Shown here in pieces: positions 15,524 through 30,151 of a stretch of DNA of 64,000 bases. The notes beneath the pieces are model-generated. The model did not search any database. It was given only the letters and a program-made list of their open reading frames with translations, and was not told the origin of the DNA. The DNA comes from Gammaproteobacteria bacterium (lineage in GTDB: Bacteria; Pseudomonadota; Gammaproteobacteria; SZUA-140). The stretch is taken from contig JACREF010000005.1 of the NCBI GenBank assembly GCA_016218365.1, positions 130-64,129 of the forward strand, given 5' to 3'. A program made the translations under genes and the position numbers. Each line of letters begins with the position of its first letter. The first letter of the stretch is position 1.

Positions 15524-17416
15524 TTACCGGGCCTGGGCCGCGGTCAACAGATTCACGATCTCCTTGTAACCATTGCGCGTGGCCACGGCGAGCGCACTGT
15601 CGCCATGGGCCGCGCCCAGCCCGACATCGGCACCATGGGCCAGCAGGCGCCGCACCACCTCGGCATGGCCACCACGCGCGGCATGGATCAAGGCCGTCCG
15701 GCCTCCTTCATTGTTCGCCTGTCCATAGGGGCGGCTCTGACCATCGATGGCATTGACATCGGCGCCGCGCTGCAGCAACAGTTCGACGACGGTATCGTGA
15801 CCATTCATTGCCGCCAGCATCAACGGTGTCCGGCCCTCATTGTCCCGGCTGTCCACCACGCTGTCCTGGTCCAGCAATGCCGTCACCGCATCCAGATTAC
15901 CGTTGGCCGCAGACCAGGACAACGCGACCCGGCCCTGCGGATCGCGCAGGCCGGCATGGGCGCCACGCTGCAGTAACACCCGTACCGTACCCGCGTTGTT
16001 ATTCATCGCGGCCTCGATCAGCAAGGTGCGGGACTGCTCCTGGCGCAATATGCTGGCGATAAAGAAATCATTGTATTCAGTGGCGATCGGCAGATCGGGA
16101 TCGAGACCATGATCAAGCAGCAGTGTCATGATCTCGCTGTGGCCCAGCCGCGCCGCCAGCAGGCCCGGTGTCTCGGCCTGGCGATTCGGCAGATTGACGT
16201 CGGCACCATGGGTCAGCAGCAGATCGACCACGGCGCTGTGGCCATTGCGCACCGCCGTCAGCAGCGGTGTATCACCACGTCCGGCCTCACGCTGCAGCAC
16301 CTTGCTGCGCTCCGGCAAGGCCGCGTTCGCCAGCCGCTGTTCCGAGACCCCGCGGCCGGCACGGTTGACGCCGGCCCCTTCCTTGATCAGCATCCCGGCG
16401 ATCGTCAGATAACCCCTGGTGGCCGCCATCAGCAAGGCCGACACCCCCTGTTCCATCGCATCGGGATCGACATGGTTGTTCTGGCGGTTAGCCAGCAACT
16501 CCTGCACCTTCGGCTGGTCATTAAATTCGACGGCGCGCAGCAAGGCCTGGTTATTGTCCAGGCCGGCATAACGCCGGCCATCCCGCGCCCCGGCCTGATC
16601 GAGCACGGCTGCGATATCCAGATAACCGCGATCACGTGCCAGCGACAAGGCCGTGTCGCCGTTGGCCCGCTCCACATTGGGATCGGCACCCGCCGCCAGC
16701 AGCGCACGCACCATCGGCAGCCACTGCGCCCCGTCCTCACCCTGCACACCGTGCTGGGCGGCAAACATCAGCGGGGTAAAGCCGCGATATTCCTGACGGC
16801 CGGTGCGCAACGACAGATTGGGGTTGGCACCACGTTCCAGCAATTTGCTGACGATCGCCAGCTGGCCATATTTGACCGCGTAAAACAACGCATGTTCACC
16901 ATCGGCATTCCTGACATTGACGTCGGCCTTCGCCTCAAGCAGCGCATCGGCAATCGCGGCATCGCCGCGGGTGCTGACCACCATCAGTGCGGTCGTGCCA
17001 TCACGTGACTGGGCATTGACGTTGGCCCGGTGCTGCAACAGATCGCGAACGATGGCACGGTGACCGGCCCCGACCGCGGCCAGCAAGGCCGTATTGCCCA
17101 GCGCATCGCGGCCCTCGGTATCAACCTGCTGTTCAAGCAACTGATGGACCATCTCCTGCTGACCATACCGGGCGGCCATCACGAGCCGGGTGTCGCCCGC
17201 ACCATCCTCTTTCTGGGCGCTGTCTCTGCCCGATATGGCATTAGCCGGTGCGGCCCGCGCCGGTAGCTCCTCCACCTTGCCGGCGCGGAGCGCCTCGCGT
17301 TTGGCCAGGGCCTCGGACTTGATCCGCTCGGCAACACGGTTGTCCACGGTGCTGCAGCCAGCCAGTGCCACGAGCACCAGCAGCACGATACAACGCAGTG
17401 GCAGGCGGCAGGTCAT
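15524..17416 (-). CDS. Ankyrin-repeat lipoprotein (>=14 ANK repeats)
   Basis: 630 aa; signal peptide + lipobox LAGCST; repeated G-TALM/L-AA--GH---V--LL--GADVN units throughout. Confidence 0.8.
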   Translation of the reverse strand: MTCRLPLRCIVLLVLVALAGCSTVDNRVAERIKSEALAKREALRAGKVEELPARAAPANAISGRDSAQKEDGAGDTRLVMAARYGQQEMVHQLLEQQVDTEGRDALGNTALLAAVGAGHRAIVRDLLQHRANVNAQSRDGTTALMVVSTRGDAAIADALLEAKADVNVRNADGEHALFYAVKYGQLAIVSKLLERGANPNLSLRTGRQEYRGFTPLMFAAQHGVQGEDGAQWLPMVRALLAAGADPNVERANGDTALSLARDRGYLDIAAVLDQAGARDGRRYAGLDNNQALLRAVEFNDQPKVQELLANRQNNHVDPDAMEQGVSALLMAATRGYLTIAGMLIKEGAGVNRAGRGVSEQRLANAALPERSKVLQREAGRGDTPLLTAVRNGHSAVVDLLLTHGADVNLPNRQAETPGLLAARLGHSEIMTLLLDHGLDPDLPIATEYNDFFIASILRQEQSRTLLIEAAMNNNAGTVRVLLQRGAHAGLRDPQGRVALSWSAANGNLDAVTALLDQDSVVDSRDNEGRTPLMLAAMNGHDTVVELLLQRGADVNAIDGQSRPYGQANNEGGRTALIHAARGGHAEVVRRLLAHGADVGLGAAHGDSALAVATRNGYKEIVNLLTAAQAR

Positions 17417-17422
17417 CGCGCC

Positions 17423-17743
17423 TCAGTACCTCGGCATGTCAGGATCGACACTGCACGCCCAGGCATCGACACCACCGCTCAGATTGAACACATTGGTGAA
17501 ACCCTGCTGCTCAAGAAACATTGCCACCCGCATGCTGCGCCCGCCATGGTGGCAGATCACCACCAGCTCCTGGTCGGCATCCAGTTCACTGACCCGTGAC
17601 GGCACCTCGCGCATCGGGATATTGACCGCGCCGATGATATGGCAGATCTCGAATTCAAAGGGCTCCCGGACATCGAGCAACAACGGCGGCCGGGCGGCCG
17701 CACTCAATGTCTGCTGCAACGCCGCTGGCGTCATTTCCTTCAT
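17423..17743 (-). CDS. Rhodanese-domain sulfurtransferase (GlpE-like, single domain)
   Basis: 106 aa; LLDVREPFEF, active-site loop VVICHHGGRS. Confidence 0.85.
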   Translation of the reverse strand: MKEMTPAALQQTLSAAARPPLLLDVREPFEFEICHIIGAVNIPMREVPSRVSELDADQELVVICHHGGRSMRVAMFLEQQGFTNVFNLSGGVDAWACSVDPDMPRY

Positions 17744-20614: not shown

Positions 20615-22039
20615 ATGACGACACCCCCGATCTGCGCCGGCAAGTTCTGCCATAACGTCGAGGCCATGGTCGACAAGGCCATCGCCGCCCTCGACATCGA
20701 CACCGGCGTCGCCGCGGCGATCAAGACCTGCCACTCGGTGTTACAGGTGAGGTTTCCGGTCAAAATCCGTGGAAAGATTGAAGTTTTCACCGGCTGGCGC
20801 GCGGTGCACAGCACCCATCGGCTGCCGGCCAAGGGCGGCATCCGTTATGCGCCGATCGCCGACCAGGACGAGGTCGAGGCGCTGGCGGCGCTGATGACCT
20901 TCAAATGCGCCGTGGTCGATGTGCCGTTCGGCGGCAGCAAGGGCGCGCTGCATATCGACCCGAAACACTATAACCGCGAGGAGATGGAGGCGATCACCCG
21001 CCGCTTTGCCGTCGAGCTGGCGCGCAAGGACTTCCTGAACCCGGCGACCAATGTACCGGCCCCGGACGTCGGCACCGGCCAGCGCGAGATGGCATGGATC
21101 GCCGACACCTACAAGCATCTGCACCCCGAGGACATCAATCATCTGGCCTGTGTGACCGGCAAACCGGTGCACCACGGTGGCATCCGTGGCCGCGTCGAGG
21201 CCACCGGCCGTGGCGTGCAATATGCGCTGCGCGAGTTCTTCCGCCACCCCGAGGACGTGGCCCGGGCCGGGCTGAGCGGCACGCTCGACGGCAAGCGCAT
21301 CGTCATCCAGGGTCTGGGCAACGTCGGCTATCATGCCGCGAAATTCCTGTCAGAGGAGGATGGCGCAGTCATCATTGCCGTCATCGAGCGCGACGGCGCC
21401 GTGATCAACGATGATGGTCTGAATATCGAAGAGCTGTACCGGCATATCGTCGAACACAAGACGATCCAGGGCTATCACGGCGGCCGCTTTGTCGCCGACG
21501 GCCTGCCGGTGCTGGAACTGCCCTGTGACCTGCTGATCCCGGCCGCACTCGAAGGCCAGATCACCGCCGCCAATGCCGGGCGCATCCAGGCCCGGATGGT
21601 CGTCGAGGCCGCCAACGGCCCGTGCACCTTCGAGGCCGACACCATCCTGAACCAGCGCGGCATCCTGGTACTGCCCGACATCTATATCAACGCCGGTGGC
21701 GTCGTGGTGTCGTATTTCGAATGGATACGCAACATCTCGCACATCCGCTTTGGCCGCATGCAGCGCCGCCTTGAAGAACAACAGGGTGACCGGCTGACGA
21801 CGGTGCTGGAGCAGGTCACCGGCACCCGTCTCGATGACACGATGCGGGCACAGATCAGCCGCGGCGCCGACGAGATCGACCTGGTGCGCTCCGGCCTCGA
21901 CGACACGATGCGGCTCGCCTACCAGGAGATGCGCCAGGTCTGGCATCACAACCCCAAGGTCCACGACCTGCGCACCGCCGCCTTCGTCATCGCCGTCGAA
22001 AAGATCGCCCGCTCCTACCTCGACGTCGGGCTGTTCTGA
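20615..22039 (+). CDS. gdh: Glu/Leu/Phe/Val-family glutamate dehydrogenase
   Basis: FGGSKGALHIDP catalytic-Lys motif, GLGNVGYHAAKFL Rossmann motif; start probably MTTPPICAG ~20615. Confidence 0.85.
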   Translation: MTTPPICAGKFCHNVEAMVDKAIAALDIDTGVAAAIKTCHSVLQVRFPVKIRGKIEVFTGWRAVHSTHRLPAKGGIRYAPIADQDEVEALAALMTFKCAVVDVPFGGSKGALHIDPKHYNREEMEAITRRFAVELARKDFLNPATNVPAPDVGTGQREMAWIADTYKHLHPEDINHLACVTGKPVHHGGIRGRVEATGRGVQYALREFFRHPEDVARAGLSGTLDGKRIVIQGLGNVGYHAAKFLSEEDGAVIIAVIERDGAVINDDGLNIEELYRHIVEHKTIQGYHGGRFVADGLPVLELPCDLLIPAALEGQITAANAGRIQARMVVEAANGPCTFEADTILNQRGILVLPDIYINAGGVVVSYFEWIRNISHIRFGRMQRRLEEQQGDRLTTVLEQVTGTRLDDTMRAQISRGADEIDLVRSGLDDTMRLAYQEMRQVWHHNPKVHDLRTAAFVIAVEKIARSYLDVGLF

Positions 22040-22265
22040 GCCTGTCCTGAGTAGCGACATAGTCGCGTATCGAAGAGCCTGTCCTGAGTAGCGACATAGT
22101 CGCGTATCGAAGGGCCTACTCACCACGAACGGCTCCATCTACCCGTTCATCCTGAGTAGCGCTGCGTAGCAGCGCGTATGGTTCGATACGGCGCTGCGCG
22201 CCTACTCACCATGATCGGTATATGTTAGGGCCTGAGTAGCGACATAGTCGCGTATCGAAGGACCC
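22040..22265. repeat. REP/BIME-like array (same family as 4925-5185, opposite orientation units CCTGTCCTGAGTAGCGACATAGTCGCGTATCGAAG)
   Basis: Direct reading; starts immediately after gdh stop. Confidence 0.75.
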
Positions 22266-22324
22266 ACCTTGACACCGTCCCGCCCCACCGCTATCATTCC
22301 AATACTCTTTGGAATGATAGCACC

Positions 22325-22984
22325 ATGAACACACGCGCCACCAAGGATCTGCTGTATCAACAGGTCGCCCGGATCGGCAAGGTCGTGTCCAGTCCGCGGC
22401 GGCTGGAGCTGATCGAGTTGCTGTGCCAGGGGGAGAAGAGCGTCGAACAGCTCGCCGGTGATGCGAACATGACGGTCAAGCTGGCCAGCGCGCACCTGAA
22501 GGAACTGAAGGCGGCGCGGCTGGTCGAGACGCAGCGCCGCGGCAAGCATATCTATTACCGTCTGGTGGACAGCGGAGTCGCTGACTTGTGGGTGATGTTG
22601 CGCCGCCTCGCCGGGCACCGGCTGCTGGAGCTGCAGGCGGCGCTGACGACGCTGACGAAACGGCCGGACGAGCTGCTGCCGGTCGGCAGTCGCCAGTTGC
22701 TGCAACAGGCACGGCGCGGCGACATCATCGTCATCGATGTGCGGCCGGCTGATGAGTATGCCGCCAACCACCTGCCCCATGCCCGTTCGCTGCCACTGGC
22801 AGAACTGAAACGGCGGCTACATGAATTACCGGCCGATCGTCCGGTAGTTGCCTACTGCCGCGGTCCGTTCTGCCTGATGGCGCACCAGGCGGTGGCGCTG
22901 CTGACAAAACACGGCTACCGCGCGCAACGTCTCGAAGACGGCGTCGCCGAGTGGCGGGCGCGCGGCCTGCCACTGGCAGCATAA
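22325..22984 (+). CDS. ArsR/SmtB-family transcriptional regulator fused to C-terminal rhodanese domain (candidate sulfide/persulfide sensor)
   Basis: N-terminal HTH (RRLELIELLCQGEKSVEQLA...KELKAARLVETQRRGKHIYYRL); C-terminal IIVIDVRPADEY...VVAYCRGPFCLMA rhodanese active-site Cys loop. Confidence 0.8.
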   Translation: MNTRATKDLLYQQVARIGKVVSSPRRLELIELLCQGEKSVEQLAGDANMTVKLASAHLKELKAARLVETQRRGKHIYYRLVDSGVADLWVMLRRLAGHRLLELQAALTTLTKRPDELLPVGSRQLLQQARRGDIIVIDVRPADEYAANHLPHARSLPLAELKRRLHELPADRPVVAYCRGPFCLMAHQAVALLTKHGYRAQRLEDGVAEWRARGLPLAA

Positions 22985-23134
22985 CAACGTGATGAAAAAC
23001 GCATCGGCGGATGCCAGACAAGGCGCAACAGGGCGAGGAAGCGGAGTTTACACACGAGTAAATGAGCATTTCGAGCACTGTTGCAACGCCGGATGGCGCC
23101 GCCCAGGTGTTTTTCAACAAGCTGTTAAGGAGAT

Positions 23135-23488
23135 TTGATGAAGACACTGCTGATACTGAATGAATCGCCGTACGGCAATGAGCGCAGCTACAATGCGCTG
23201 CGGCTGGCGAGCGCGCTGACCAAGGCTGCCGGTAACGAGGTCCGCGTCTTTCTGCTCGGCGACGCCGCAGCCTGCGCCAAGGCCGGCCAGCAGGTGCCGG
23301 CAGGCTTTTACAACATTCAATTGATGCTCGACAAGGTCATCCGCGCCCCGGCCGCCGTTGGCGTCTGCGGCACCTGTATGGACGCGCGTGGCATCAGCGA
23401 CGCCGAACTGCTTGATGGCGCACAGCGCAGCTCGATGGTCGAGCTGGCAACGTGGACGGCATGGGCGGACAAGGTCATGGTGTTCTAA
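23135..23488 (+). CDS. DsrE/DsrF-like family protein (YchN-like)
   Basis: 117 aa; collinear with E. coli YchN (…ESPYGNE…FLLGDAA…GYNIQLML…CGTCMDARGIS…ELATWTAWADKVMVF). Confidence 0.8.
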   Translation: MMKTLLILNESPYGNERSYNALRLASALTKAAGNEVRVFLLGDAAACAKAGQQVPAGFYNIQLMLDKVIRAPAAVGVCGTCMDARGISDAELLDGAQRSSMVELATWTAWADKVMVF

Positions 23489-23607
23489 GGCCTCTATTGA
23501 TGCGTCATTCCGGGCGCAGCCTGGCTGCGACCCGGAATCCAGCGTTTCACCGATCAGGGGCGGGAGTGACGCACAGGAATACATCGGCCCCACAGGGAGA
23601 GACAATC

Positions 23608-24342
23608 ATGTTTTTCAAACAACTGGCGACCAAAGAATCCACGCTGTCCTATTTCTTCGGCTGCGCCAGCCTCGGCAAGGCGGTGGCCGTCGATGTCGTC
23701 GCCGGCGATGAACCGTGGTTCATCGAACAGGCGCGGCAGGCTAATGTCACCATCACCCATGTCATCGACACCCATGTCCATGCCGACCATTATTCGGGCG
23801 GCCGCCGGCTGGCGGCACAAAGCGGCGGCGCCTATTGCCTGCATGAAAGCGACCGTGATCTGGTCCAGTTCGACTTTCAGCCGCTGCGCGATGATGAGAT
23901 CATCGAGGCCGGCAATGTCATCATCAAGGTGCTGCATACGCCGGGACACACGCCGGACAGCATCTGTCTATTGGTCACCGACCGCCGCCGCGGCAGCGAG
24001 CCGTGGTTCGTCATCACCGGCGACACGCTGTTCGTCGGCGCCATCGGCCGTCCCGATCTCGCCGGCCAGGAACAGCAGATGGCCGCAACCTTGTTCGACA
24101 GCCTGCAACACAAGCTACTGTCGCTGCCGGACGACATCGAGATCTATCCCGGCCATCAGGCCGGCAGCGTCTGCGGCGCCGGGCTGTCCGGCAAACCGTC
24201 ATCGACGCTGGGGTTTGAGAAACGCTGGAACCCGGCGCTGGCGATCCGCGACAAACAGGCCTTCGTCGAGCTGCTGACGCGCGACATCCCGCCGCGGCCG
24301 GCCGACATGGCGCAGATCGTCGCCGCCAACATCGCCGCATGA
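23608..24342 (+). CDS. MBL-fold metallo-hydrolase, persulfide-dioxygenase (ETHE1/Blh)-like
   Basis: HVIDTHVHADHYSGG metal-binding motif, HTPGHTPDS, ~245 aa; RBS GGGAGA upstream of ATG ~23608. Confidence 0.65.
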   Translation: MFFKQLATKESTLSYFFGCASLGKAVAVDVVAGDEPWFIEQARQANVTITHVIDTHVHADHYSGGRRLAAQSGGAYCLHESDRDLVQFDFQPLRDDEIIEAGNVIIKVLHTPGHTPDSICLLVTDRRRGSEPWFVITGDTLFVGAIGRPDLAGQEQQMAATLFDSLQHKLLSLPDDIEIYPGHQAGSVCGAGLSGKPSSTLGFEKRWNPALAIRDKQAFVELLTRDIPPRPADMAQIVAANIAA

Positions 24343-24352
24343 TACCGCGCCA

Positions 24353-25675
24353 TTGACGACCGCAACCGGGGACCGCATGACCATGCCACTCAGCGAACCG
24401 GTCCACGGCATCCGCGCCAACCTCGACCAGTTCCTGCATCAGCTGCTGCAGGTGTTCCTGGTCGGGCTGACCATCGGCATGATGCGCACCGTGATCCCGG
24501 CGCTGGCCGACAGCGAGTTCGGCGTGCCGCGCGGCTCGTTCATGCTGCTGATGGCCTTTGTCATCGCCTTCGGCTTCGTCAAGGGCACGCTGAACTTCGT
24601 CGCCGGCCATCTGGCGGAACGGATCGGCCGCAAGACCGTGCTGCTGCTCGGCTGGGCCGCTGCGCTGCCGATCCCGCTGCTGATCCTGCATGCCCCGAAC
24701 TGGAACTGGATCGTCGCGGCGACGGTGCTGCTCGGCATCAACCAGGGCCTGACCTGGTCGATGACGCAGACCGCCAAGCTCGACCTAACCCGGCCCGACC
24801 AGCGCGGCCTGACCATCGGCCTCAATGAATTCTCCGGCTACCTCGGCGTCGCGGTAGCCGGCATCGTCACCGGCTACTTGGCAACCATCCTCGGCCCGCG
24901 TCACGGCCTGCTGATCTTCGGCTCGATCGTCATCGTACTGGCGCTGCTGCTGACGGCGCTGTGGGTCAAGGAGACGCTGCGCTGGGCCCGCGCCGAGGGC
25001 GCGCGCCATGCGGCCGGCCAGAGCACCGGACCGCGGCCGCGTTTTCCGCACAATATCGCTGACCGGCCGACCACCTGGCAGGTGTTCACACTGATGACAT
25101 GGCGCGACCGGCGCATGGCGGCGCTGTGCCAGGCCGGGCTGGTCGAGAAATTCGTCGACGCGCTGGTGTGGGTGTTCTATCCGGTGTTCCTGTATCAGCA
25201 CGGCATCAGCCTGCCTGGCATCGGCTGGATCGTCGGCATCTATGGCCTGGTATGGGGCGGCTCGCAGTTCTTCACCGGCAAGCTGTCCGATCATGTCGGG
25301 CGGCACCGGCCGATCGTCGCCGGGATGTGGCTCTGCGGCGCCGGCGTCGGCATGATGCTGCTCGGCGAGGGTGTCGCGTGGTGGTCGCTGTCGGCGGCGA
25401 TCACCGGTTTCGGCATGGCACTGCTGTACCCGAACCTCAGCGCGGCGGTGGCCGACATCGCCCACCCGAACTGGCGCGGCGCGGCGATCGGCATCTACCG
25501 TTTCTGGCGCGACCTCGGCTATGGCATCGGCGGGCTGGCGCTGGGCATCGTCGCCCATGTCGGCGGCTCGATCAGCGCCGGTTTCTGGCTGGTCGCGATC
25601 GCGATGCTGCTGTCCGGCGCGCTGCTGCAGTGGTGGGGCGAGGAGACGCATCCGCGGCTCAATCCGCAGCGCTGA
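24353..25675 (+). CDS. MFS transporter
   Basis: 440 aa, 12 predicted TM, MFS loop motif ERIGRKTVLLLG. Confidence 0.8.
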   Translation: MTTATGDRMTMPLSEPVHGIRANLDQFLHQLLQVFLVGLTIGMMRTVIPALADSEFGVPRGSFMLLMAFVIAFGFVKGTLNFVAGHLAERIGRKTVLLLGWAAALPIPLLILHAPNWNWIVAATVLLGINQGLTWSMTQTAKLDLTRPDQRGLTIGLNEFSGYLGVAVAGIVTGYLATILGPRHGLLIFGSIVIVLALLLTALWVKETLRWARAEGARHAAGQSTGPRPRFPHNIADRPTTWQVFTLMTWRDRRMAALCQAGLVEKFVDALVWVFYPVFLYQHGISLPGIGWIVGIYGLVWGGSQFFTGKLSDHVGRHRPIVAGMWLCGAGVGMMLLGEGVAWWSLSAAITGFGMALLYPNLSAAVADIAHPNWRGAAIGIYRFWRDLGYGIGGLALGIVAHVGGSISAGFWLVAIAMLLSGALLQWWGEETHPRLNPQR

Positions 25676-25711
25676 GCAACAATCTTTTAACAGCAACACG
25701 GAGGTGTGGTT

Positions 25712-26866
25712 ATGAGTGACGGAAAAACCATATTGATCCTCGGCGGCGGCACCGGCGGCATCGTCGCGGCCAGTCGGCTGCGCAAGGGGCTGGGCCGCGA
25801 ACACCGGATAGTGCTGATCGAACGCGCGGCGGACTATCTGTTCGCACCATCGCTGCTGTGGCTGATGACGGGGCTGCGCAAACGCACCGCGATCTCGCGG
25901 CCGCTGACGCGGCTGGCGCACGGCATTGAGCGGGTCCATGGCAACATCGAGGCCATCGATCCGCTGCACCGCACCGTGCAGGTCAACGGCAGGAAGCTGA
26001 GCGGCGATTACCTGGTGGTGGCGCTGGGCGCGGAACTGGCGCCGCAGACCGTACCGGGGCTGGCCGAGGCCGGTCACAACCTGTACGAACTGGCCGGGGC
26101 CGAGGCCTTGCGCGATGCCCGGTTGAACTGGCGCGCGGGCCGGCTCATCGTGCTGGTCAGTGCCGTGCCGTTCAAGTGTCCGGCGGCGCCGTATGAGGCG
26201 GCGATGCTGCTGGAATACGATTGCCGCAAACGCCGGATCCGCGATCAGGTGACGATTGATTTATATACCCCGGAACCCGGGCCGATGCCGGTGGCCGGCG
26301 CCGAGGTCTCGCAACAGGTGCGCCAGATCGTCGAGGCCAAGGGCATCGGCTATCACCCCGGCCATGCGGTGAGCCGCGTCGATGCCGGCGCGCGCCGCAT
26401 CGAGTTCGCCAACGGCGCGGCCACCGGTTTTGATCTGCTGGTCTACGTGCCGCCGCACCGGGCGCCGCAGGTGGTGCAGGACGCGGGACTGTGCGGCGAA
26501 TCCGGCTGGATTGCGGTCGACCGCCAGACGCTGCAGACCCGCTTTCCGGGCGTCTACGCACTCGGCGATGTCACCGGCATCATGCTGGCGATGGGCCGGC
26601 CGCTGCCCAAGGCCGGGGTGTTCGCCCATGGCGAGGCCGAGGTGGTGGCGCACAATCTGGTCTGCGCGCTCACCGGCCGCGGCCAGCCGCGGCAGTTCGA
26701 TGGCCATGGCGAGTGTTTTGTCGAGACCGGCGACGGCAAGGCCGGCTTCGGCAGCGGCGATTTCTTCGCCGAGCCGCTGCCGCAGGTGCGGCTGCGCCCG
26801 CCCGGCCGCAGCCTGCACCTCGGCAAGATCGCCTTCGAGAAGTTCTGGCTGTTCGAATGGTTTTAG
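25712..26866 (+). CDS. Sulfide:quinone oxidoreductase-like FAD-dependent pyridine nucleotide-disulfide oxidoreductase
   Basis: N-terminal ILILGGGTGG FAD motif; FKCPAAPYEAAMLL cysteine motif typical of SQR-family; likely start MSDGKTIL. Confidence 0.7.
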   Translation: MSDGKTILILGGGTGGIVAASRLRKGLGREHRIVLIERAADYLFAPSLLWLMTGLRKRTAISRPLTRLAHGIERVHGNIEAIDPLHRTVQVNGRKLSGDYLVVALGAELAPQTVPGLAEAGHNLYELAGAEALRDARLNWRAGRLIVLVSAVPFKCPAAPYEAAMLLEYDCRKRRIRDQVTIDLYTPEPGPMPVAGAEVSQQVRQIVEAKGIGYHPGHAVSRVDAGARRIEFANGAATGFDLLVYVPPHRAPQVVQDAGLCGESGWIAVDRQTLQTRFPGVYALGDVTGIMLAMGRPLPKAGVFAHGEAEVVAHNLVCALTGRGQPRQFDGHGECFVETGDGKAGFGSGDFFAEPLPQVRLRPPGRSLHLGKIAFEKFWLFEWF

Positions 26867-26967
26867 GAACCTCTGATTAATCAGAGGTTCTCTGTGGCAC
26901 ACGGACGTGCTCTGAGAATTCCAGGATGGAATTATTCAGAGCTTCCTTTAGCAAGCGGAGCGGAACG

Positions 26968-27216
26968 ATGATCGACGCCATGCAGATGCACGACCCGTGG
27001 GCCGGCAGCATGTGGGCTGGCGGTATGTGGCTGTGGGCGGTGCTGTTCTGGGGGCTGGCGATCGCCGGGGCGGTGCTGGTCGTCAAGTCACTGCTCGGGC
27101 GCGGGCTGGAGCGCGATGCCGACCCGCTGGACATCCTCAAGCGCCGCTATGCGCGCGGCGACATCGACCGCGCGACCTTCGAGCAGATGAAAAAAGACCT
27201 CGAAGACAGCCGGTGA
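26968..27216 (+). CDS. Small membrane protein with C-terminal SHOCT domain
   Basis: TM segment WLWAVLFWGLAIAGAVLVV followed by ILKRRYARGDIDRATFEQMKKDL (SHOCT). Confidence 0.6.
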   Translation: MIDAMQMHDPWAGSMWAGGMWLWAVLFWGLAIAGAVLVVKSLLGRGLERDADPLDILKRRYARGDIDRATFEQMKKDLEDSR

Positions 27217-27223
27217 CACCGTG

Positions 27224-27880
27224 ATGACCGGTGTAGATCCCGCCGCCTATGAAGCCTGGTATCACACGCCACGTGGCCGCTGGATCGCCGAGTGTGAGTT
27301 TGCGCTGCTGCAACGCCTGCTGCGTCCGGCGGCCGGGGCCAGCCTGCTCGATGTCGGCTGCGGCAGCGGCCACTTCAGCCGCCGCTACGCCGCCGCCGGG
27401 CTGCGGGTGACCGGGCTGGACCGCGACACGGCGCTGCTGGCCTATGCCCGTTCCCGCGATGACCAGGTGACCTATCTGCACGGTGATGCGCTGGCACTGC
27501 CCTGCGCCGACGGCGCCTGCGATCACTGCGCCGCGATCACCAGCCTGTGTTTCATCTCTGAACCGGCACGGGCGCTGGCCGAGCTGTTGCGGGTCGCCCG
27601 CCGCAGCGTGGTGCTGGGCCTGCTGCACCGCCACAGCCTGCTGTATCGGCAGAAATGCGGCCAGGGTGGTTATCGCGGCGCACGCTGGGATACGGTGACC
27701 GATGTCCGGCGCTGGCTGGCGGCGACCGGCCATACCAGCACGACGACATTGCGCGCGGGCCATGCGCTGTGGCTGCCGTCCGGCAACACCGTGGCCCGGC
27801 TGACAGAGCGTCTGCTGCCCGCCGCATGTCCCGGCGGCGGTTTTCTCGCCATCGCGCTGCATCACAAAACGGCCGCATAG
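27224..27880 (+). CDS. Class I SAM-dependent methyltransferase (Methyltransf_11-like)
   Basis: LLDVGCGSGHFS motif I; ~218 aa. Confidence 0.75.
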   Translation: MTGVDPAAYEAWYHTPRGRWIAECEFALLQRLLRPAAGASLLDVGCGSGHFSRRYAAAGLRVTGLDRDTALLAYARSRDDQVTYLHGDALALPCADGACDHCAAITSLCFISEPARALAELLRVARRSVVLGLLHRHSLLYRQKCGQGGYRGARWDTVTDVRRWLAATGHTSTTTLRAGHALWLPSGNTVARLTERLLPAACPGGGFLAIALHHKTAA

Positions 27881-27889
27881 CGGCCTCGC

Positions 27890-28255
27890 CGTCGGGCTGT
27901 CCTGAGACGCCCCCGTTCGTCCTAACGGGTGTTCCTGTTCCATGGCAGGTGTGGGCCGTTCGTCCTGAGTAGTGCTGCGCAGCAGCACGTATCGAAGGGT
28001 CGCCCTGAGTAGCGGCAGCATGCCTGGTATCGAAGGGCAGTAGCGCCGTCCATGGTTCGATACGGCACTGCGTGCCTACTCACCACGAACGGTCTCCTCC
28101 TCCCCGCCCGTCCTGAGTAGCGACATAGTCGCGTATCGAAGGGCCTACTCACCACGAACGGGTGTTCCTGTTAGTTCCATGGCAGGTGTGGACCGTTCGC
28201 CCTGAGTAGCGGCCAACGGCCGCGTATCGAAGGACCGCATATCCCCCACCAAAAC
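27890..28255. repeat. REP/BIME-like array (largest copy cluster; mixed orientations)
   Basis: Direct reading: GTCCTGAGTAGCG...CGTATCGAAGG and GCCTACTCACCACGAACGG units repeated ~8 times. Confidence 0.75.
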
Positions 28256-28330
28256 ACCCGGTGCAGCAAGACCTTATTTATAGTATAATGTCGCGCCTTC
28301 GAAACCTTTAAAAACCTTCAGGATATCGCC

Positions 28331-30151
28331 GTGATCGAGAACCTACGCAACATCGCCATCATCGCCCACGTTGACCATGGCAAGACCACGCTGGTCGACA
28401 AGCTGCTGCAGCAGTCCGGTACCCTGGACACCCGCGGCGGCGTCACCGAACGCGTCATGGATTCCAACGACCTGGAAAAGGAACGCGGCATCACCATCCT
28501 GGCCAAGAACACCTCGATCCGCTGGAATGACTACCGGATCAACATCGTTGACACCCCGGGCCACGCCGATTTCGGCGGCGAGGTCGAGCGCGTGTTGTCG
28601 ATGGTCGACTCGGTACTGCTGCTGGTCGATGCCGTCGACGGCCCGATGCCGCAGACCCGCTTTGTGACCCAGAAGGCCTTTGCGCTGGGCCTGAAGCCGA
28701 TCGTCGTCATCAATAAGGTCGACCGCCCCGGCGCCCGCCCCGACTGGGTGCTGGACCAGACCTTTGACCTGTTCGACCGCCTCGGCGCCACCGATGACCA
28801 GCTCGACTTCAAGGTGGTGTATGCCTCGGCGCTGATGGGTTATGCGACGCTGGACCTGAGCCAGCCATCCACCGACATGACGCCGCTGTTCGAGACCATC
28901 ATCAAGGAAGTGAAGCCGCCCCAGGTCGACTTCGACGGCCCGTTCCAGATGCAAGTCAGCTCGCTCGATTACAACAGCTACGTCGGCGTCATCGGCATCG
29001 GCCGCATCGCCCGCGGCCGCATCAAGACCAATTCGCCAGTCGTCATCATCGACCGCGTCGGCCAGCGCCGCACCGGCCGCATCCTGCAGATCCTCGGCTT
29101 CCATGGCCTGCAGCGTGTCGAGGTCCCCGAGGCGCAGGCCGGCGACATCATCGCCTTCACCGGCGTCGAGACGCTGAACATCTCCGACACCTTGTGCTCA
29201 CCGGACAAGCCGGAGGCCCTGCCGCCGCTGACCGTCGATGAACCGACCGTCAGCATGACCTTCCAGGTCAATAACTCGCCGTTCGCCGGCAAGGAAGGCA
29301 AATACGTCACCTCGCGCCAGATCCGCGACCGGCTGCAGAAGGAACTGATCCACAACGTCGCCTTGCGCGTCGACGACACCGAAGACCCGGACCGCCTCAA
29401 GGTCTCAGGTCGTGGTGAACTGCATCTGTCGGTACTGATCGAGAACATGCGCCGCGAAGGGTTCGAGCTCGGCGTGTCACGCCCCGAGGTCATCATCCAC
29501 GAGATCAACGGCATCAAGGAAGAGCCGTATGAACAGGTCACCATCGACGTCGAGGACATCCATCAGGGCACTATCATGGAAAAGCTCGGGCTGCGCGGCG
29601 GCGAGCTGAAAAACATGATGCCCGATGGCCGGGGCCGGGTACGCCTTGATTACATCATGCCATCGCGCGGCCTGATCGGCTTCCGCACCGAATTCCTGAC
29701 CGCAACCCAGGGCACCGGGCTGATCTACAGCGTGTTCGACCACTACGGCCCGATCAAGAAGGGTTCATACGGCCAGCGCATCAACGGCGTGCTGATCTCC
29801 AACGGCACCGGCAAGATCCTCGGCTATTCCTTGTTCAACCTGCAGGAACGCGGCAAGCTGTTCGTCGGTCACGGTGAAGAGGCCTATGAAGGCATGGTCA
29901 TCGGCATCCATGCCCGTGACAACGACCTGGTCGTCAACCCGCTGAAGGGCAAGCAGCTGACCAACGTCCGCGCCTCGGGCTCCGATGAAAACATCATCCT
30001 GGTTCCACCGATCCGCTTCACCCTGGAACAGGCGCTGGAGTTCATCGATGACGACGAACTGGTTGAGGTCACGCCGCAGTCGATCCGCATCCGCAAAAAG
30101 AAGCTGAAGGAAAACGACCGCAAGCGCGCCTCCCGCTCCGACGAGGATTAG
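28331..30151 (+). CDS. typA: Translational GTPase TypA/BipA
   Basis: [38 protein letters not shown]; 606 aa collinear with BipA. Confidence 0.95.

Follow-up and report, generated by a model that had tools for sequence, protein, structure and literature searches.

A rhodanese-fused ArsR regulator with a conserved candidate operator heads a probable sulfide-oxidation gene cluster in a gammaproteobacterium

The 64,000-nucleotide stretch of DNA analysed here as a whole (the window; Gammaproteobacteria bacterium, lineage SZUA-140, contig JACREF010000005.1) carries, at positions 22325-27880, seven co-directional open reading frames (ORFs) on the + strand, the first of which encodes an ArsR-type helix-turn-helix (HTH) regulator fused to a rhodanese domain. 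We read this cluster, with a probability of roughly 0.6, as an accessory, horizontally acquired operon that oxidises sulfide and sulfane sulfur under the fused-rhodanese repressor, detoxification of sulfide being its most likely role. A repressor released by sulfane sulfur is proposed because a palindrome lies over the promoter, the neighbouring genes are sulfur-specific, and the cysteines of the regulator follow a distinctive pattern. An earlier note, made from the sequence alone, had described a putative sulfide- or persulfide-response cluster of seven genes; all seven were recovered where it had placed them, and its domain assignments were upheld in Pfam and NCBIfam.

The regulator (22325-22984, + strand) is one protein of 219 aa, in agreement with the fusion and intact cysteine loop claimed earlier, and both of its domains exceed their Pfam cutoffs: HTH_5 at residues 23-68 (22391-22528; 39.5 bits, cutoff 22) and Rhodanese at residues 124-212 (22694-22960; 56 bits, cutoff 22.2). 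It also passes the NCBIfam HTH_metalloreg model (70.1 bits, cutoff 55), and its winged-helix ArsR fold is backed by the secondary structure of an AlphaFold2 (AF2) model and by Foldseek matches to SmtB, CzrA, and NolR. That model comprises two confident domains, with a mean predicted local distance difference test score of 89.1 and a long helix at residues 83-111. The rhodanese loop VAYCRGPFC occupies residues 175-183; its catalytic-type cysteine opens a six-residue loop, C178-R-G-P-F-C183 (22856-22873), which is followed by a helix at residues 184-195.

Three cysteines are present in the regulator: C34, C178, and C183. Among 19 aligned relatives (alignment A1; 43-72% identity), C178 and C183 are the only invariant cysteines and R179 is invariant as well, while C34 is kept in 13 of the 19 and no cysteine anywhere in the N-terminal half is invariant. 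Searching 1.84 billion cluster representatives (50% identity) with a profile returned 832 proteins at E <= 1e-30. Within the best 150 of these, 133 are 195-300 residues long; the C-x4-C arrangement is retained in 114 of the 133, and in 66 of these the stretch before the rhodanese domain is free of cysteine. Ten of the 133 do not match the C-x4-C pattern, some of them apparently frameshifted. In alignments of the regulator, E31 takes the place of the cysteine of BigR (3pqj) and S38 that of the SmtB cysteine in ELCVGDL, and no cysteine occurs between residues 35 and 177; the ArsR-domain cysteine pair of the BigR/SqrR type is thereby absent, and the NCBIfam BigR equivalog scores 43.8 bits (cutoff 155). 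The rhodanese loop holds the only conserved candidate sensor residues. Metal sensors of the ArsR/SmtB family use alpha3N cysteines or alpha5 His/Asp/Glu sites; helix 83-111 contains no invariant Cys/His/Asp/Glu cluster in the 19 sequences of alignment A1.

Upstream of the regulator lies a sigma-70-type promoter (22269-22297, + strand), TTGACA and TATCAT separated by a 17-nt spacer, which matches 11 of 12 consensus positions and is the only strong promoter-like site in 21900-28400, all others reaching at most 9/12. An ArsR-type operator palindrome had been anticipated between 22265 and 22325, and one is present at 22290-22321: a candidate operator with perfect 13-6-13 symmetry, GCTATCATTCCAA-TACTCT-TTGGAATGATAGC, whose core CATTCCAA-N6-TTGGAATG spans 22295-22316. 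It overlaps the -10 box and ends 3 nt short of the regulator ATG. No other perfect site exists in the 2.26-Mb genome; the seven sites that come closest carry 3 mismatches. A further operator envisaged upstream of 23135 is absent, that gap being occupied by a 133-bp palindromic repeat element.

The site is conserved across genomes. For 87 regulators (86 from the loci and one from the window), the 136 nt around the start were scanned for the closest match to CATTC-N12-GAATG, with 50 shuffles as control. Matches with 2 mismatches or fewer were found in 77 of the 87 upstream regions, compared with about 4.2 of 87 in the shuffles. By number of mismatches, the observed counts and shuffle means were 19 and 0.02 (none), 29 and 0.14 (one), 29 and 4.04 (two), 8 and 25.3 (three), and 2 and 48.8 (four). 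No perfect site occurs in the same 87 regions at half-site spacings of 8-11 or 13-16, and across loci the sites read CATTCYAA-N6-TTRGAATG. The operator stands mostly 20-56 nt before the start in co-directional loci and about 105 nt before it in most loci with divergent structural genes. A paralogue clade of 42% identity, serving as a natural control, has no upstream region among five with fewer than 3 mismatches to CATTC-N12-GAATG.

These paralogues form a second set of ArsR-rhodanese genes (about 42% identity) located beside or downstream of the first operon in L025, L026, L033, L079, L087, and L040. One example, L026:9876-10544, has the loop CRGPYC, and in L025, L026, and L033 the paralogue lies upstream of the methyltransferase gene. 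An upstream motif, ACGGGGATAAT or (G/A)CGGGATAAT, is common to the five co-directional copies examined, none of which has CATTC-N12-GAATG. The leader of the window regulator is predicted at about 20 nt; in the betaproteobacterial loci L001-L005 a -10-like TAGAAT stands 6 nt before the regulator ATG, which suggests leaderless transcripts. Three other ATTC-N12-GAAT-type hits in the window were rejected as copies of an unrelated hairpin repeat, ATTCCCGCGAAAGCGGGAAT.

The second gene encodes a DsrE-family protein of 117 aa (23135-23488, + strand; Pfam DsrE, 88.2 bits) whose best solved relative is E. coli YchN (1jx7), matched over the full length at E 7e-25, as the earlier reading had it; its C78-G-T-C81 motif aligns CGTC to CKTC, and both cysteines are invariant in 39 of 39 sequences. 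The third is a metallo-beta-lactamase (MBL) of 244 aa (23608-24342, + strand; Lactamase_B), the ORF of which opens at 23452 while its homologues start at MFFKQL, that is, at 23608. This protein had been called ETHE1-like. The placement on the persulfide-dioxygenase side stands, but the protein resembles CstB/Blh enzymes (3r2u, E 1.5e-44) rather than ETHE1 (4chl, E 1e-16). Another MBL-rhodanese protein, 3tp9, follows at E 1.4e-41 and the persulfide dioxygenase 4ysb at 5e-27; human glyoxalase II (1qh3) reaches 7e-15. Grouping with glyoxalase II had been named beforehand as the result that would speak against the assignment, and the protein groups with CstB-type persulfide dioxygenases. The alignment to 3r2u runs through all MBL motif regions, including the GS-x-CG cysteine C189, and the HxHxDH-type fold of the CstB/Blh class is present. 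All 60 sequences compared (59 orthologues and the window) keep H56, H58, D60, H61, H114, D139, H183, C19, and C189. By Pfam, the 244 residues consist of the MBL domain only, without the C-terminal rhodanese domains of CstB/Blh enzymes, and the NCBIfam Blh equivalog scores 57.2 bits (cutoff 625). We therefore describe it as a stand-alone CstB/Blh-type MBL and a probable persulfide dioxygenase.

The fourth gene encodes a major facilitator superfamily (MFS) transporter, as claimed (24353-25675, + strand; MFS_1, 164.6 bits), with an ORF of 440 aa; its true start is possibly some 10-20 codons downstream, orthologous alignments opening at residues 11-41. The fifth product is a flavoprotein of 386 aa (25706-26866, + strand; Pyr_redox_2) with a hydrophobic, aromatic-rich C-terminal tail. 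It had been assigned to the sulfide:quinone oxidoreductase (SQR) family, with type II NADH dehydrogenases as the alternative grouping, and it sides with SQR and flavocytochrome c sulfide dehydrogenase (1fcd, E 3.8e-30; human SQR, 1e-28; Aquifex SQR, 7.7e-28); chains titled NADH oxidase, NADH dehydrogenase-like protein, or FAD-dependent oxidoreductase score E 4e-12 to 1e-7. Both redox cysteines are kept: C158 in PFKCPAAPYE (26177-26179) and C337 in GHGECFVETG (26714-26716) align with the PVKC and TSCP cysteines of human SQR, which we take to be residues 201 and 379. In orthologues from seven other loci, C158 is invariant in 8 of 8 sequences and C337 in 7 of 7, one orthologue being cut by a contig end. 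The best NCBIfam model is type III SQR NF049943, at 238.9 bits below its cutoff of 525, an 'exception' model for a selenoprotein subtype of type III SQR; the protein is accordingly called type III SQR-like.

The last two genes encode a small protein with a hydrophobic stretch and a SHOCT domain (26926-27216, + strand; Pfam SHOCT, 36.8 bits), as had been stated, and a class I S-adenosylmethionine (SAM)-dependent methyltransferase of 219 aa (27221-27880, + strand), which both Pfam and NCBIfam confirm. The SHOCT ORF is of 96 aa with an uncertain start, orthologous alignments opening at residues 30-35. As for the methyltransferase, MddH is described as a UbiE-like S-methyltransferase of H2S and methanethiol, with identity above 45% to MddH defining its clade (PMC11445057); the protein here resembles MddH only in size (219 aa, compared with about 24 kDa) and in its class I/UbiE-like superfamily.

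Related genes occur elsewhere in the same genome. A separate MBL-rhodanese fusion of 358 aa lies on contig C23 (L092:5485-6558), and a second SQR-like flavoprotein of 401 aa with 25% identity lies on C22 (L091:5854-7056). A match on C24 (L090:6811-7560) was rejected as a second regulator fusion: it consists of separate ArsR (103 aa) and rhodanese (141 aa) genes, a split pair that stands before secB and gpsA. Within the window, the earlier note had also pointed to a second rhodanese at 17423-17743. It is a real single-domain protein (Rhodanese, 80.9 bits), but it has no link to the cluster and was rejected as a part of the system, being on the opposite strand and separated from it by about 4.6 kb, which include gdh and two or more long ORFs. 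Directly downstream of it on the same strand lies the gene of an ankyrin-repeat protein (15524-17416, - strand; 630 aa), almost all repeats (Ank_2, 276 bits), whose N-terminus looks lipoprotein-like by eye.

The gene neighbourhood was compared by tblastn with the window proteins at 88 regulator-encoding loci of other genomes (8 found at first and the 80 closest among those listed in a scan of species-representative genomes), several of which are cut by contig ends. The MFS gene accompanies the regulator in 63 of the 88 loci, the MBL gene in 61, and the dsrE gene in 40; the methyltransferase gene does so in 23, the SQR-like gene in 11 (in 7 of them at 52-72% identity), and the SHOCT gene in 5. 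The grouping of these genes exceeds chance, and the regulator, MBL, and MFS genes form a conserved core. Of the seven genes put forward earlier, those for SQR, SHOCT, and methyltransferase are optional members. Gene order is conserved too: regulator-MBL-MFS is the commonest arrangement (17 loci), ahead of the same order with a methyltransferase added (10) and regulator-DsrE-MBL-MFS (9). Loci L036 and L074 have a DsrE-SQR-MBL-MFS set divergent from the regulator, L018 and L075 have regulator-DsrE-SQR, and the SQR-like gene lies directly within the operon or divergon of the regulator in six loci. Annotation of seven loci adds to these neighbours a TauE sulfite exporter, Cys/Met pyridoxal phosphate enzymes, a class V aminotransferase, a rhodanese, and a DedA-rhodanese fusion. 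Carriers include Thiobacillus, Sulfuriferula, and Gallionella; among those that can be cultured are Cupriavidus necator (L043), Thiobacillus thioparus DSM 505 (L049), Ralstonia pickettii (L050), and Variovorax (L051). In a pattern scan of species-representative genomes, at least 546 of the 600 candidate stretches listed contained a relative of the regulator. Rhodanese-fused ArsR repressors are very common in bacteria, and the instance in the window is unexceptional within a family that is large and apparently unstudied; literature searches, outside whose scope were subscription journals and supplements, found no publication on an ArsR-rhodanese fusion.

The cluster is an insertion between gdh and typA and was probably acquired horizontally. 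In three of four same-family relatives examined (G003, G005, and G007), typA comes immediately after gdh, 159-200 bp away, whereas 6.3 kb separate the two genes in the window, where typA begins at 28331; in the fourth relative (G010), typA is not within 6 kb of gdh. Of 18 same-family genomes searched, only G017 has the regulator, in a differently arranged cluster without SQR and with neither gdh nor typA within 17 kb. Composition is a weak sign of import and the break in synteny the better evidence: the GC content of the cluster (0.661) is above all 2098 sampled 5.5-kb windows (mean 0.594), and its GC content at third codon positions resembles that of the flanking genes. A 23-nt direct repeat brackets the cluster, its left copy comprising the last codons and stop of gdh (22018-22040, + strand) and its right copy standing just after the methyltransferase stop (27884-27906, + strand); the copies are 21/23 identical at a spacing of 5866 nt and may be an insertion scar. 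No integrase is present.

Repeat families of this genome flank the cluster and occupy its gaps. Arrays of repetitive extragenic palindromic (REP)-type repeats, with the core TGAGTAGCG...CGCGTATCGAAGG, lie to the left (22040-22261) and, before typA, to the right (27950-28230); 6 copies occur in the window against 0 expected, and the core has 52 regular-expression matches in the genome. The 133-bp palindromic element (22993-23125) between the regulator and dsrE, the ends of which pair as inverted repeats (GATGAAAAACGC with GGTGTTTTTCAAC), has two more genomic copies, at C24:207207-207339 and C28:27806-27936, with 84-86% identity. A hairpin repeat of about 40 nt (ATTCCGGG...CCCGGAAT; 23503-23542) fills most of the dsrE-MBL gap, which would otherwise be short, and has 22 near-full-length blastn matches elsewhere in the genome. 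In the SQR-SHOCT gap (26867-26925), a perfect 24-nt palindrome (GAACCTCTGATT/AATCAGAGGTTC; 26867-26890) abuts the SQR stop and is followed by a dispersed 20-nt repeat (26906-26925). This 20-mer recurs exactly at 17 other places in the genome, several of them no more than about 100 nt from the end of a contig, and may be the end of an assembly-breaking repeat. Because three repeat families of this genome other than REP fill its gaps, the cluster is resident in the genome and not an assembly artefact. Among listed sequencing runs, the interval 22200-27900 is contained, in whole or in part, in four DNA runs of one groundwater-metagenome study and in no RNA run.

On these observations a mechanism can be proposed. 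The product of the first gene would act as a repressor, binding through its ArsR domain as a dimer to the palindrome that overlaps the -10 box and so blocking transcription, that of its own gene included. The fused rhodanese domain would serve as the sensor. In this model C178 accepts sulfane sulfur donated by persulfide, polysulfide, or thiosulfate, and a di-, tri-, or tetrasulfide bridge then forms between C178 and C183, which lies five positions further along; the change would be relayed via the long helix 83-111 to the DNA-binding domain, and the repressor would leave the DNA. Among the proteins thus expressed, the SQR-like flavoprotein would convert H2S to sulfane sulfur, the YchN-like DsrE protein would carry that sulfur on its two-cysteine motif, and the CstB-type MBL would oxidise persulfide with O2 to sulfite or thiosulfate, a product that the MFS protein would export. 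The methyltransferase might use a thiol or sulfide as methyl acceptor, as is described for MddH, a UbiE-like enzyme of similar size.

Several points weigh against this interpretation. The 133-bp element that splits the regulator from dsrE is a hairpin with a U-run (RNA fold -61.1 kcal/mol, z -5.86), standing where the corresponding gap in orthologous loci is mostly short (for example, 17-52 nt in L015, L016, L019, L039, and L052), and it could act as a terminator inside the operon. Behind it, no second operator or strong promoter was found in the cluster. Given this hairpin with its U-run and no second operator or promoter after it, read-through to the six downstream genes has to be assumed; further hairpin repeats stand in the dsrE-MBL and SQR-SHOCT gaps. 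The SQR-like, SHOCT, and methyltransferase genes are found alongside the regulator at low frequencies. The metal-ligand set of the MBL is the full set also found in glyoxalase II, and its probable dioxygenase activity follows from one line of evidence, the similarity to CstB. The operator counts overstate their support to the extent that related sequences share ancestry, although the regulators in that scan are only about 60% identical to the query. Nine of the 133 full-size representatives keep only the first loop cysteine, and a C178-C183 bridge therefore cannot be universal. Finally, the AF2 model has a predicted template modelling score of 0.52 and a low-confidence linker, and every Foldseek match to it in the PDB spans one domain only; the domain arrangement in the model is uncertain, as is any structural route for the signal.

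The first group of these points is also what favours a narrower view of the locus, in which only regulator-(DsrE)-MBL-MFS is one regulated unit. The genes for the SQR-like protein, SHOCT protein, and methyltransferase, or perhaps all genes past the 133-bp hairpin, would then be expressed independently in this genome. The rarity of those three genes beside the regulator (11, 5, and 23 of 88 loci) fits it, as do the hairpin repeats in the gaps after the regulator, dsrE, and SQR genes, and the methyltransferase gene of Thiobacillus loci stands behind a second, separate paralogue of the regulator. Nevertheless, the seven genes are co-directional with gaps of only 4-30 nt wherever no repeat is inserted, no other promoter-like site exceeds 9/12, and six loci have the SQR-like gene directly in the regulator's operon or divergon. 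We regard an independently expressed distal part as a serious possibility, though a doubtful one.

It is unlikely that the rhodanese domain is instead a working enzyme, or a module that binds thiosulfate or sulfite, without a covalent persulfide switch, so that the regulator responds to a bound anion or simply carries a sulfurtransferase activity that is normally fused to CstB-type enzymes. Such an arrangement would suit an MBL that lacks the rhodanese domains of its closest solved relatives. Among single domains, the regulator's rhodanese is matched best by the one at the C-terminus of the CstB-like protein 3tp9 (45 bits), and the Thiobacillus thioparus DSM 505 locus L049 adds a separate rhodanese gene. 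A thiol switch, however, is what the conserved second cysteine in the place of a usual loop residue fits, as does the lack of any other conserved sensor residue, and catalysis and sensing are not mutually exclusive.

Sensing of general thiol oxidants (peroxide, hypochlorite, or disulfide stress) through a C178-C183 disulfide, with the sulfur enzymes as part of a wider redox-stress response, appears quite improbable. A C-x4-C pair can form a disulfide without sulfane sulfur and is kept in 114 of 133 representatives, and L026 has a rubrerythrin and a rubredoxin reductase-type gene nearby. Yet the conserved neighbours in this subfamily (CstB-type MBL, DsrE, SQR, TauE, rhodanese) are sulfur-specific, the first cysteine belongs to a canonical rhodanese loop whose +1 position is an invariant Arg, and the 9 representatives that retain the first cysteine alone are at odds with a disulfide switch. 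Handling of a metalloid (arsenic, selenium, or tellurium) by reduction, methylation, and export, to which an ArsR-family regulator, an Acr2-type rhodanese reductase, a methyltransferase, MFS efflux, and NCBIfam equivalog-type matches including TsoR (53.7 bits) and the selenoprotein-subtype SQR model would lend themselves, is very improbable, because the loop reads C-x4-C followed by Leu and not the C-x5-R of Acr2/Cdc25-type reductases, ArsM-type models score only 18.7 bits, no ars genes occur in the seven annotated neighbourhoods, and the ArsR domain has neither a conserved cysteine at the SmtB position nor an invariant one in its N-terminal half.

A repressor released by sulfane sulfur is accordingly retained as the preferred explanation, and it invites a broader proposition that we advance tentatively. 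Rhodanese-fused ArsR proteins may constitute a distinct, enzyme-coupled class of sulfane-sulfur sensors, in which the CRGPxC loop loads sulfur from specific donors, locks it as an intra-loop polysulfide bridge, and frees the CATTCYAA-N6-TTRGAATG operator, across hundreds of lineages that range from sulfur oxidisers to heterotrophs and presumably include mycobacteria. CstR, SqrR/BigR, PigS, and FisR are described in one account as sensing persulfide by the regulator's own cysteines, with the SqrR/BigR pair located within the DNA-binding ArsR fold (PMC9774590). If the proposition is true, sensing by way of a sulfurtransferase active site would gain donor specificity and catalysis, and the way in which bacteria distinguish sulfane sulfur from other oxidants would become open to experiment. 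Since the family operator is well defined, the assignment of one signal could extend to hundreds of operons.

Comparison with known systems places the regulator, by its sequence, as a variant of the persulfide-sensing ArsR repressors that lacks the BigR/SqrR cysteine pair, and not as a member of the CsoR family like CstR. SqrR of Rhodobacter capsulatus and BigR of Xylella and Acinetobacter are likewise ArsR winged-helix repressors encoded beside genes for persulfide dioxygenase, SQR, and a sulfur transporter, and BigR (3pqj) aligns to regulator residues 8-88 at E 4.6e-7. Their operators are also palindromes with ATTC/GAAT half-sites; the half-sites are 8 nt apart for SqrR and 12 nt apart here. 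SqrR is reported to sense by a Cys41-Cys107 tetrasulfide and BigR by Cys42-Cys108 (PMC9774590). Unlike in those proteins, the conserved cysteines here sit in the fused rhodanese domain and not in the ArsR domain.

The cst operon of Staphylococcus aureus (CstR, CstA, CstB, SQR, and TauE) shares with the cluster a rhodanese, a DsrE/TusD-like carrier, a CstB-type MBL, an SQR, and an exporter, and 3r2u, to which the MBL here aligns over its full length, is presumably the S. aureus CstB-type protein. CstA is a three-domain fusion and CstB carries two rhodanese domains; in the window, by contrast, separate small proteins carry the individual domains, and it is the regulator that bears the rhodanese. 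The cst regulator belongs to the CsoR family and its exporter is TauE, in contrast to the ArsR regulator, MFS exporter, and type III-like SQR of the window. CstB is stated to turn persulfide into thiosulfate (PMC9774590). In E. coli, ygaV-ygaP also couples an ArsR regulator genetically to a rhodanese and is a split analogue of the fusion: its products are two separate proteins, YgaP being membrane-anchored, instead of the one fused protein found here. The YgaP rhodanese (2moi and 5hbl) matches regulator residues 130-218 at about 27 bits, and the window genome has a split ArsR and rhodanese pair of its own before secB (L090), as in ygaV-ygaP.

The best solved relative of the N-terminal domain is Mycobacterium bovis Mb0332 (PDB 2kko and 3gw2; E 6e-18), with 42% identity over 88 aligned columns in the Foldseek comparison with the PDB. 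Its entries are titled 'fragment 1-100', and the protein is accordingly longer. We assume Mb0332 to be the orthologue of M. tuberculosis Rv0324 and to carry a rhodanese domain. In the passages of PMC9480834 that concern it, Rv0324 is treated as an ArsR-family factor linked to bedaquiline tolerance, with no sensor domain mentioned there.

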